From a virus (lineage: Duplodnaviria; Heunggongvirae; Uroviricota; Caudoviricetes): a DNA stretch of 35,636 nt. Shown here piece after piece: positions 24,952 through 35,636 of this stretch. The translations under genes and the position numbers were made by a program. The notes beneath the pieces were generated by a model. The model was not told the origin of the DNA and did no database searches. It worked only from the letters and a program-made list of their open reading frames with translations. Numbering within the stretch: position 1 is the first letter of the stretch; each line of letters begins with the position of its first letter. Where the stretch lies: the IMG/VR virus record IMGVR_UViG_2718218358_000004, one strand, 5' to 3'.

Positions 24952-26898
<1,947 letters not shown>

Positions 26899-32767: not shown

Positions 32768-33283
32768 TCACAGCAAACCGAATGAAGCACCGAGGCCAGT
32801 CACGGTATCAACTGCACTCGCCATCGCAGGGTTAGCCTGTAAACGGGCCTGCAATGAAACAGCAGCCAACGCCATCAGTCGTGTTACAGAGTTAATGCTG
32901 CTGATAGCATCACGACGACCTGCACTGGTTTTTACATCGCCAGATACCGCACCTGCAGCAACACGCCCGATCTCTGCGGTTGCACTCATGACGTAATGTG
33001 GCAGTTTCTCTTTTGCCACCTCATTAATCGGTACGCATGGCAGGCAGTGAATCTGAGCCAGAAAACCATCTACCAGAGTTGAATCTTCAGTCAGATCGGT
33101 AAGCAGCCAGATTTCTGGTGCGGTTAATAAATGAGGTTGCGCTGGGTTCAACTTGTTCCGCAGAATCTGCACATTCATGCCAGCACGTTCTGCCAGTTGC
33201 ACCAGGTTGTGGCGCAATGCGAATGCACGACAGGCTTCATCAAAATGTGGATGTTTGGAAACTTGGTAATCAAACATGGTCAA
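32768..33283 (-). CDS. cII: CII-like transcriptional activator (186 type)
   Basis: 171-aa ORF, second gene after apl, length close to 186 CII (169 aa). Confidence 0.7.
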
Positions 33284-33309
33284 TGCCTCTGATGTATTTC
33301 AGAATCGAA

Positions 33310-33531
33310 CTAATTAAGGTTTAGATTGCATTCTGAAAGCGCATCAACGGTCATTGCTGCTATGTTGATCATCACTTTTTCGCGTTTTTTATCTTTGCGC
33401 AGTCGGTGACGGATAAGGCGTCCATCAGCCAACATGTCATTGATGGTATCGATGGATAGCCCTGTCAGCTCGCTATAGCGTTCAATAGTCACATGAGGGG
33501 TGGTAAGAGTGATTGAAATGTTAGGTCTCAT
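33310..33531 (-). CDS. apl: Apl/Cox-like excisionase-repressor
   Basis: 73-aa basic HTH protein, first gene of the early operon divergent from cI. Confidence 0.65.
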
Positions 33532-33650
33532 GATGCAACATTCCTCGTTTAATGATGATTAATCAGGACGAATACGGATCGTTTGTATTTTGTGAACACC
33601 ATAAACATACGATCGCACAGTGAAATCGTCAAGATAAAAGTTCACTTGGA

Positions 33651-34226
33651 GTGACCATGAATTTGGAGAAAGGCGGACGAGGCGCTATAGAGCGCATGGT
33701 AGAAGCTTATGGATTCAAGACTCGACAGGCGTTGTGCGATCATTTAGGAATCTCTAAAAGTACACTCGCCACACGCTACATGCGTGACTCATTCCCAGCA
33801 GAATGGGTAATCCAGTGCGCCCTTGAAACAGGCACCTCGCTTAATTGGCTCACAACCGGGCATGGTTCAAAGCAAACTTCAGGTAATACAAATACTATGG
33901 AAGTTGCTAAATATGTATTATCTGATGGGGCCTTGTGTGAAGACGGTTTTTATATTTTCGATAGAGAATTTCTACCGTCGGCATTCAAGAATCTTTTTGT
34001 AATCACAGATAATAATTCTGAATTTATTTGTGATAAGGAATTTGATGATATACGTGATGGTAAATGGGTAATAAGTATTGATGGCGAAATAACGATCCGT
34101 GACATTACTCGTTTACCCGGTGGAAGAATCTTCGTCGAGGGTGGAAACAGAGCCTTCGAGTGCAAGATAGAAGATGTTGAAATAATTGGGAAAATTATAA
34201 GTTTAACAATTAAGTACGTTAGGTAA
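33651..34226 (+). CDS. cI: CI immunity repressor (186 type)
   Basis: 191-aa ORF; N-terminal HTH (EAYGF...CALETG..L.WL.TG) and length match 186 CI as remembered. Confidence 0.75.
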   Translation: MTMNLEKGGRGAIERMVEAYGFKTRQALCDHLGISKSTLATRYMRDSFPAEWVIQCALETGTSLNWLTTGHGSKQTSGNTNTMEVAKYVLSDGALCEDGFYIFDREFLPSAFKNLFVITDNNSEFICDKEFDDIRDGKWVISIDGEITIRDITRLPGGRIFVEGGNRAFECKIEDVEIIGKIISLTIKYVR

Positions 34227-34241
34227 TACCGGGAGGAAACT

Positions 34242-34433
34242 ATGCTTGGTAAGGTATTTTTTGTGGTTTTATCATGCTCTTTGTTATTAAACCCACTAAC
34301 TACCTATGCTAAAAATTATCCTTGTTCTGGGAAAAAGGGAGGTGTCTCTCACTGTACCTCCGATGGAAAGTTCGTTTGCAATGATGGAACTATTAGTAAA
34401 TCAAAAAAAATCTGTACTAAAAACTCGCGATAA
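34242..34433 (+). CDS. small secreted cysteine-rich protein (orphan accessory gene)
   Basis: 63-aa ORF with strong SD (gggagg), N-terminal signal peptide, four Cys in the ~40-aa mature part, AT-rich. Confidence 0.5.
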
Positions 34434-34619
34434 ATTTTGCTTTTATATCTGCGCCTAATATAACAATGAGCCGCAGGCTAACCGCAAAAGTCACATACTC
34501 ACATAGCAAAAAATAGCTAACTTCATTATGGCTTCAGTGAGATGTATGGTCGCAGGATTTCATACATTGACACTGGTTATACATACAGTAAAAATGCTCT
34601 CTACTGGAGGGCATTTTTT

Positions 34620-35636
34620 ATGGCAGTACGAAAACTCACCACAGGAAAATGGCTTTGCGAATGTTACCCCGCCGGACGTAGTGGACGTCGTGTGCGTAAA
34701 CAATTCGCCACCAAAGGCGAAGCTCTGGCTTTTGAGCGTCACACGATGGAAGAAACCGAAGCAAAGCCCTGGCTGGGCGAATCAGTGGATCGTCGGACAT
34801 TGAAAGACGTGATTGAGCTATGGTTCAAACTACATGGTAAATCTCTGACAGCTGGGCAGCATGTCTATGACAAACTGCTGTTGATGGTTGACGCTCTGGG
34901 CAATCCCCTTGCAACTGATCTAACCTCTAAAATGTTTGCCCACTATCGAGATAAACGCCTGACAGGTGAGATCTACTTCAGCGAGAAATGGAAGAAAGGA
35001 GCAAGCCCGGTCACCATTAACCTGGAGCAAAGCTATCTAAGTAGTGTTTTTAGCGAACTATCCCGCCTGGGCGAATGGTCGTATCCGAACCCACTGGAGA
35101 ACATGCGAAAATTCACCATCGCAGAAAAAGAGATGGCATGGCTTACCCATGAGCAGATTGTTGAACTGCTGGCTGATTGCAAACGTCAGGACCCAATTCT
35201 GGCACTGGTAGTCAAGATATGCCTAAGCACAGGCGCACGCTGGCGAGAAGCAATAAATCTTACCCGCTCGCAAGTGACCAAATACCGAATTACCTTTGTA
35301 AGAACGAAGGGGAAGAAAAACAGAAGCATCCCTATCAGTAAAGAGCTTTACGAAGAGATCATGGCGCTTGATGGGTTCAATTTCTTTACAGACTGCTATT
35401 TTCAATTTTTATCCGTGATGGAAAAAACGTCTATCGTGCTCCCTCGCGGTCAACTGACACACGTTCTGCGCCATACGTTTGCGGCGCACTTCATGATGTC
35501 GGGTGGAAATATCCTTGCTTTGCAAAAAATCCTCGGACATCACGATATAAAAATGACTATGCGCTATGCCCATTTAGCACCCGATCATCTTGAGACGGCT
35601 CTGAGATTCAACCCCCTCGCAACGCTAGAAGTGTGA
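34620..35636 (+). CDS. int: tyrosine integrase (P2 Int family)
   Basis: 338 aa from MAVRKL; C-terminal R...HxxR...Y catalytic pattern (LTHVLRHTFA...MRYAHL); ends at the last base of the window. Confidence 0.85.
   Translation: MAVRKLTTGKWLCECYPAGRSGRRVRKQFATKGEALAFERHTMEETEAKPWLGESVDRRTLKDVIELWFKLHGKSLTAGQHVYDKLLLMVDALGNPLATDLTSKMFAHYRDKRLTGEIYFSEKWKKGASPVTINLEQSYLSSVFSELSRLGEWSYPNPLENMRKFTIAEKEMAWLTHEQIVELLADCKRQDPILALVVKICLSTGARWREAINLTRSQVTKYRITFVRTKGKKNRSIPISKELYEEIMALDGFNFFTDCYFQFLSVMEKTSIVLPRGQLTHVLRHTFAAHFMMSGGNILALQKILGHHDIKMTMRYAHLAPDHLETALRFNPLATLEV

Follow-up and report, generated by a model that had tools for sequence, protein, structure and literature searches.

Introduction

The operon that runs from the repressor gene cI to the integrase gene int is annotated as the lysogenic transcript in phages 186, HP1 and K139. 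The interval between the two genes is empty in 186, where the cI stop overlaps the int start, and holds four open reading frames (ORFs) in HP1. In the P2-family Vibrio phage K139 it carries glo, a gene of the lysogenic operon encoding a small protein with a signal peptide, annotated in GenBank as 'periplasmic protein; involved in phage exclusion'. The cI–int region of K139-like Vibrio phages is a defence hotspot (PMC9122126), and the cI–int slot has also been described as such in a preprint (bioRxiv 10.64898/2026.02.27.708500). Here, we describe the gene that occupies this interval in the IMG/VR virus record IMGVR_UViG_2718218358_000004, a stretch of 35,636 nucleotides that is referred to in its entirety as the window and that consists of host flank and a P2/186-like prophage integrated beside rcdA. 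The gene is a 63-codon ORF, read in a first-pass annotation from the sequence alone as a cysteine-rich secreted mini-protein inserted between cI and int.

Llp of phage T5 and Cor of phages phi80 and N15 are small exported lipoproteins that bind FhuA and block superinfection at the envelope. Two further described proteins resemble the window product in sequence. The first is YdcA of Escherichia coli K-12 (b1419, NP_415936.1); the sole phenotype reported for ydcA is the sensitivity of a deletion mutant of E. coli W to 300 mM 3-hydroxypropionate, and the authors of that study cite acid induction under the control of YdcI (PMC7642389). The second is Dis2 (Lpg0823) of Legionella, which is composed of two lobes alike in sequence and structure, contains five disulfides, lies beside the outer membrane in contact with DotK, DotC and DotD, and has been called Legionella-specific and without structural relatives (PMC8486379, PMC12716638).

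Identification of the window ORF as a YdcA-family gene

The product of the window ORF is almost certainly an exported mini-protein of the YdcA family (PF27300, NF007463), carried as cargo in a slot of the lysogeny operon. The gene and its parts are as follows.

34231–34236, + strand: Shine–Dalgarno sequence GGGAGG, read from the sequence, 5 nt 5' of the ATG.
34242–34433, + strand: YdcA-family gene of 63 codons and a stop, with a product identical to RefSeq WP_001321204.1 (evidence: NF007463, phrog_6000, PF27300 and the pN/pS ratio).
34242–34310, + strand: predicted signal-peptide coding part, residues 1–23 (n-, h- and c-regions read from the sequence; Ala at −1 invariant).
34311–34430, + strand: mature domain, residues 24–63 (alignments, physical properties, AlphaFold models and the match to Dis2).

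The ORF starts at ATG 34242 on the + strand, stops at TAA 34431–34433 and encodes 63 amino acids. Its product scored 116.1 bits with the NCBIfam model NF007463 (curated cutoff 93) and matched phrog_6000 with an E value of 5e-34, and PF27300 ('YdcA') is precomputed for its 97%-identical cluster representative P0001. The sequence is already known: it is identical to RefSeq WP_001321204.1, labelled 'YdcA family protein' or 'hypothetical protein'. The first-pass annotation overlooked this named, widespread family and its chromosomal member in K-12, ydcA. Two weak matches were also recorded. A GULLO2-like Pfam match (E 0.07) was rejected as spurious, the copy of Pfam used predating PF27300, and NCBIfam NF052673 (Legionella lpg1681_fam) gave a non-significant match over 34242–34430 (E 0.11).

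K-12 YdcA resembles the window protein in having a signal peptide followed by one four-cysteine domain of about 37–40 amino acids, and the two are 51% identical overall. The K-12 gene stands alone in the chromosome between rydC and hokB, whereas the window copy is prophage-borne and part of the lysogeny operon. With the K-12 equivalog model NF007462 the window protein reached 68 bits against a cutoff of 118, and it is therefore assigned to a subfamily paralogous to K-12 YdcA.

The family is uncharacterized and very common in prophages. The 90% cluster of the window protein has 355 member sequences and is seen on no fewer than 1000 contigs. Among 1.84 billion cluster representatives, 443 relatives were retrieved by profile search at E <= 1e-3; relatives are encoded on more than 500 IMG/VR contigs. 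The ORF together with its spacer is present at a coverage of at least 80% in 589 of 5426 complete E. coli genomes (~11%). Many E. coli chromosomes, those of BL21(DE3) and REL606 among them, match the final 2137 bases of the window at 100% identity. The identical gene lies at NC_012967.1 882335–882526 in REL606 and is carried by BL21 too, and it is missing from the older annotations of both strains. In BL21(DE3) (NC_012971.2) and REL606 the cI, YdcA and int genes are intact and the remaining prophage has decayed, with truncated cII and replication genes in the former and the loss of much of the late region in the latter.

The window ORF is a real gene under strong purifying selection. Comparison with alleles that are about 93% identical in DNA gave 11 synonymous and one or two non-synonymous changes (pS 0.257, pN 0.007–0.014, pN/pS about 0.05), and K24R is the only change in the mature part among these alleles. 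Overlapping ORFs at 34306–34458 (+ strand) and 34417–34509 (− strand) were taken to be spurious, the pattern of substitutions being that of the YdcA frame. A search of 33200–35000 against Rfam at E <= 1 gave no match; neither the ORF nor the spacer is therefore a known RNA.

Signal peptide and mature domain

The presence of a signal peptide and of a lipobox was judged by reading the sequence. The protein almost certainly begins with a Sec-type signal peptide, with cleavage by signal peptidase I predicted after Ala23. The leader consists of an n-region with Lys4, a 12-residue hydrophobic core (Val5–Leu16), the helix breaker Pro18 and a c-region in which Thr21-Tyr22-Ala23 fits the −3/−1 rule of signal peptidase I. 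All of the 27 diverse homologues compared have Ala at −1, while the remainder of the leader differs freely among them. A lipoprotein reading was rejected: Cys12 (VLSC) lies earlier than the usual lipobox cysteine and is not conserved in the homologues. An exclusion factor of the lipoprotein type is ruled out by the lack of a conserved lipobox, and in this respect the protein differs from Llp and Cor.

The mature part of 40 residues has a mass of 4.27 kDa, a pI of 9.6 and a net charge of about +7 (nine Lys/Arg against two Asp). It contains the family motif PCSGKKGG...FVCNDG..S.SKK.C, and Pro27, Cys28, Ser29, Lys32, Gly33, Gly34, Cys38, Phe44, Cys46, Asp48, Gly49, Ser52, Ser54, Lys55 and Cys58 are invariant in the 27 homologues. 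By homology with Dis2, the four cysteines probably form two disulfide bonds. A metal site involving His37 was considered and rejected, the histidine being replaced in P0052 (VKSC), P0079 (ISQC, IDYC) and P0085 (IARC). The first-pass annotation had read a strong Shine–Dalgarno sequence, a signal peptide and four cysteines in a mature region of about 40 residues, and all three readings are borne out, with GGGAGG at a spacing of 5 nt, an n/h/c-organized leader ending in Thr21-Tyr22-Ala23 and four cysteines (28, 38, 46 and 58) that are all invariant.

The cI–int slot

The genes and segments that surround the ORF are listed below.

33310–33531, − strand: Apl/Cox-like excisionase-repressor gene, first of the divergent lytic operon (phrog_575, E 6e-31).
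33657–34226, + strand: cI repressor gene of the 186 type, first gene of the lysogenic operon (Phage_CI_repr, E 3e-33; Phage_CI_C, E 9e-27).
34434–34531, + strand: untranslated 3' tail of the cargo segment, found only in the 'YdcA-only' arrangement and absent from relatives with other cargo.
34532–34619, + strand: conserved int leader, right border of the cargo slot (conservation in relatives with other cargo, RNA fold and promoter scan).
34620–35636, + strand: gene for a tyrosine integrase, at the end of the operon (Int_N and Phage_integrase domains, phrog_1, RefSeq 'phage integrase').

The RefSeq label at the equivalent position of cI is 'phage repressor protein CI', and a CII-like gene lies alongside the Apl/Cox-like gene, also on the strand opposite cI. 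The window prophage is identical to that of strain QA-1986 630 except for an IS66 insertion in the latter.

Comparison with relatives shows the window ORF to be accessory cargo in a variable slot. It lies on the same strand as cI, and its ATG is separated by 15 nt from the cI stop (TAA 34224–34226). The cargo position proposed in the first-pass annotation is supported by the comparison of cI–int intervals that it had suggested, since the interval, empty in 186 and filled with other genes in HP1, holds a 349-amino-acid protein in Klebsiella phage 4LV2017 and, in vB_EcoM-813R9, a 558-amino-acid protein that matches the defence model PD-Lambda-1 without a YdcA gene (L007 3791–5467). YdcA homologues occupy it in further phages. 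Other E. coli and Klebsiella prophages show the order cI, YdcA, KAP NTPase (PADLOC candidate PDC-S20), int (KAP NTPase at L011 5198–6529 and L026 3212–4543). In Haemophilus phage HP2 there is an unannotated YdcA homologue of 60 amino acids, the ATG of which overlaps with the stop codon of cI, followed by a secreted 254-amino-acid protein and int. An obligate pairing of YdcA with the KAP NTPase was considered and rejected, as YdcA occurs without it in the window and in about 589 genomes of E. coli.

For a broader view, 75 diverse IMG/VR loci were gathered with a divergent query. A CI-type repressor gene lies directly upstream on the same strand in 54 of these, and int is also found downstream in 53. 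At least four cI/int combinations occur, in which cI is 34–87% identical to that of the window and the integrases are HP2-like, 186-like or window-like. In other P2-like contigs the homologue follows tail gene D or stands beside a short helix–turn–helix repressor, and in Moraxella and Acinetobacter prophages it is surrounded by genes annotated for coat and tail proteins.

The right border of the slot was placed from the relatives with other cargo, in which about 110 nt before int are conserved (int leader identity 90% in L026 and 97% in L008); the slot therefore extends from the cI stop to about 34531. The 3' tail contains a hairpin at about 34436–34489 in the RNA fold, without a U-run behind it. 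The int leader contains a strong hairpin with a U-run at 34590–34619, AAAAAUGCUCUC-UAC-UGGAGGGCAUUUUUU, which extends exactly up to the start codon of int (ATG, 34620) and sequesters the Shine–Dalgarno sequence of int, GGAGGG. It resembles an intrinsic terminator or attenuator and may limit the expression of int from the lysogenic transcript. A promoter-like sequence, TTGACA-17-AAAAAT, at 34567–34595 overlaps this hairpin.

The product is probably periplasmic. It is probably also made in lysogens, judging from the synteny of the operon, the 15-nt gap after cI and a consensus scan of 33200–34900 in which no terminator-like site was reported on the + strand.

The ORF had also been described as AT-rich unlike its flanking genes. 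This holds against int and the window as a whole (GC fraction 0.349 versus 0.479 and 0.512) and fails against the C-terminal half of cI (0.356) and the spacer (0.376). These are as AT-rich as the ORF, the low-GC block spanning about 33920 to 34619, and base composition therefore does not mark the ORF as a separate insertion.

Relationship to Dis2 and domain architectures

Structure prediction, which the first-pass annotation had proposed, gave a confident result. The AlphaFold model has a small beta-hairpin core with predicted local distance difference test (pLDDT) values of 85–93 over residues 31–60. The only meaningful match in the PDB, by sequence and by fold, is chain AN of entries 7MUC and 7MUD, which is Dis2. 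It was found by profile search (E 7e-4), and by phmmer when only the mature domain was used (E 2.2e-4), with matches to both lobes; Foldseek placed it first with a probability of 0.97 and 39% identity over 38 columns. Alignment of the window family with Dis2 using hhalign gave an E value of 2.6e-4, and a close Dis2 homologue carries PF27300. Both lobes of Dis2 are YdcA-family (PF27300) domains. This is a new lead, by which a protein published as species-specific is now seen to be built from a widespread domain.

The two proteins are alike in that each disulfide-pinned lobe matches the YdcA domain in sequence and predicted fold and in that both are exported, the window protein by prediction. 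[quoted passage not shown] None of the genes for DotC, DotD and DotK lies close to the ORF, a result that covers the window and not the host genome.

Domain architectures were scanned in the 62 family members of at least 100 amino acids, in all of which the YdcA domain follows the signal peptide. Nuclease domains are fused to it through low-complexity linkers in five cases (Endonuclease_NS in three, SNase in one and a PLD-type domain, PLDc_2, in one). The other fusions are to PBCV-basic-adaptor-like modules (two), the type VI secretion system VasL domain (one) and DUF4124 (one), and two- and three-fold tandem YdcA repeats also occur among the long members. The PBCV-specific basic adaptor family PF08789 shares the pattern C-x-G-(K/P)(K/R)-GG-...-C with the YdcA domain; in two-domain members a second module, C.C.....C(T/I)GPRGG.YC, which matches PF08789, trails the YdcA domain and is lacking in the window protein. 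On the Rhizobium etli plasmid pRetMIM1e a protein of this YdcA plus PBCV-basic-adaptor-like type is encoded 10 bp past a thermonuclease gene (L191 2990–4264), and an OmpA-family gene lies two genes upstream of this two-module member. The thermonuclease adjacency is a link between the domain and a secreted nuclease that is separate from the fusions.

Proposed function and alternatives

The identity of the Dis2 lobes, the recurrent fusions to three kinds of secreted nuclease and the placement behind repressors provide the first concrete, testable hypotheses for this family. An envelope or exclusion role for the window protein is plausible. Within this range we tentatively favour, as a possibility and no stronger than that, a periplasmic module that binds polyanions, most likely DNA, and interferes with foreign DNA crossing the envelope. 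Co-transcription with the repressor from the lysogenic promoter would lead to its production in lysogens, and Sec export with a signal peptidase I cut past Ala23 would release a free, very basic 40-residue periplasmic domain. This domain would act in the periplasm as a compact binding or adaptor module, and might interfere with incoming DNA through superinfection exclusion or through a block of DNA uptake or transfer. Polyanion or DNA binding is favoured because of the nuclease fusions, which involve three unrelated folds, the tandem repeats and the Dis2 lobes; the net charge of the mature part is further support, and the neighbours in the slot of relatives are defence genes (PD-Lambda-1 and the KAP NTPase PDC-S20 in PADLOC).

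Two described systems offer partial parallels. Glo of K139 shares with the window protein its position, small size and signal peptide. It has 137 amino acids and lacks the four-cysteine motif, so that the likeness is one of position only; homology to Glo was considered and rejected (BLASTP E 0.18, no meaningful alignment). ComEA-type receptors, small periplasmic proteins that bind incoming double-stranded DNA (PMC12378983), are a model for the favoured mechanism. They use helix–hairpin–helix motifs and are not homologous to YdcA, for which DNA binding is a prediction.

Several points weigh against DNA binding. As far as is known, the DNA that a phage injects is usually kept out of contact with the periplasm. 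The nuclease fusions are found in only five of the 62 long members, and an anchoring of the enzymes to the envelope by the module would explain them just as well as a binding of the substrate. Chromosomal stand-alone copies (K-12 ydcA, and P0052 in a housekeeping context) indicate a basic function that is not phage-specific, and the sole ydcA phenotype is the 3-hydroxypropionate sensitivity of the deletion mutant (PMC7642389). Dis2 contacts the lipoproteins DotC, DotD and DotK and not DNA, and the effects of its deletion are subtle (PMC12716638). Finally, PADLOC-DB 2.0 at E <= 0.01 gave no match for the window protein or its L011 homologue, and membership of a known defence system was rejected for want of such a match.

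An extended version of the DNA-binding proposal is unlikely. According to this, YdcA would be an unrecognized periplasmic DNA-binding mini-domain that serves as a new kind of exclusion factor in temperate phages of many Proteobacteria, as a substrate clamp of secreted nucleases and as a brick in Dis2. It would be expressed from the lysogeny operon in P2/186/HP1-like myoviruses and in Moraxella and Acinetobacter prophages, and would trap foreign DNA in the periplasm or bar its way, be it from a superinfecting phage, transformation or conjugation; the Legionella type IV secretion system, which translocates DNA and protein, would have recruited the module as a structural brick.

The contacts of Dis2 allow another explanation, somewhat unlikely in our estimate, in which the module docks to an outer-membrane-proximal complex, to peptidoglycan or to lipid, and masks, stabilizes or remodels an envelope structure. 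Phage exclusion would still be possible on this view, through a blocked receptor or injection route and without contact with DNA. Dis2, the only structurally characterized relative, lies beside the outer membrane and contacts DotK, DotC and DotD (PMC8486379, PMC12716638), although the complex stays intact without it (PMC12716638). The fusion of one member to a VasL domain and the OmpA-family gene in the Rhizobium locus are consistent with docking, a basic surface would suit anionic lipid head groups, and the nuclease fusions can be read as envelope anchoring of the enzymes; their repeated, independent association with the domain is, however, more specific than a generic anchor would need.

It is unlikely that the gene is instead an extra, constitutive copy of the chromosomal ydcA function in envelope or acid stress, by which the lysogen would benefit. 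The whole mature motif is common to the window protein and K-12 YdcA, which are 51% identical, and copies occur in chromosomes outside prophages. The 3-hydroxypropionate sensitivity and the acid induction via YdcI fit such a role, but the phenotype comes from one study under one extreme condition and is suppressed by deletion of yieP (PMC7642389). The explanation accounts neither for the nuclease fusions nor for the very frequent siting by phage repressors beside defence genes.

A secreted antimicrobial or toxin-like peptide (defensin-like or bacteriocin-like) or a Pin-II-like protease inhibitor, the former in line with the toxin-like role that had been suggested earlier, is very unlikely. The protein is small, cationic and cysteine-stabilized, but Sec export alone would retain it in the periplasm, genes for export, immunity or processing are lacking in the slot, and the chromosomal copies that stand alone are found in housekeeping neighbourhoods. 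The weak matches to potato type II proteinase inhibitors (E 0.06–1) are non-significant, and the window protein has four cysteines against eight, with Cys38 not aligned to a cysteine.

Equally improbable is a silent passenger, kept by hitch-hiking with the immunity region and unexpressed or functionless in the lysogen: low GC is common to the ORF and the 3' half of cI, and the ORF is missing from the older REL606 and BL21 annotations, but the 11:2 ratio of synonymous to non-synonymous changes, a mature part that is nearly invariant across genera while the leader drifts, the strong Shine–Dalgarno sequence and the recurrence behind several unrelated cI and int alleles all argue for a functional gene.

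Other observations

The window locus itself is ordinary: the protein is catalogued, the slot is a known defence hotspot and the gene is present in BL21 and REL606. The new leads extend beyond the locus: the lobes of Dis2 belong to the YdcA family, members of the family are fused to nucleases, HP2 carries an unannotated homologue, and the position behind phage repressors is conserved. Elsewhere in the window, a gene for a retron Ec67-family reverse transcriptase/endonuclease lies at about 24952–26892 (mapped from L193 25741–27681), in the classical P2 defence hotspot, which is flanked by the portal gene and the replication region; REL606 carries a retron St85 system there.
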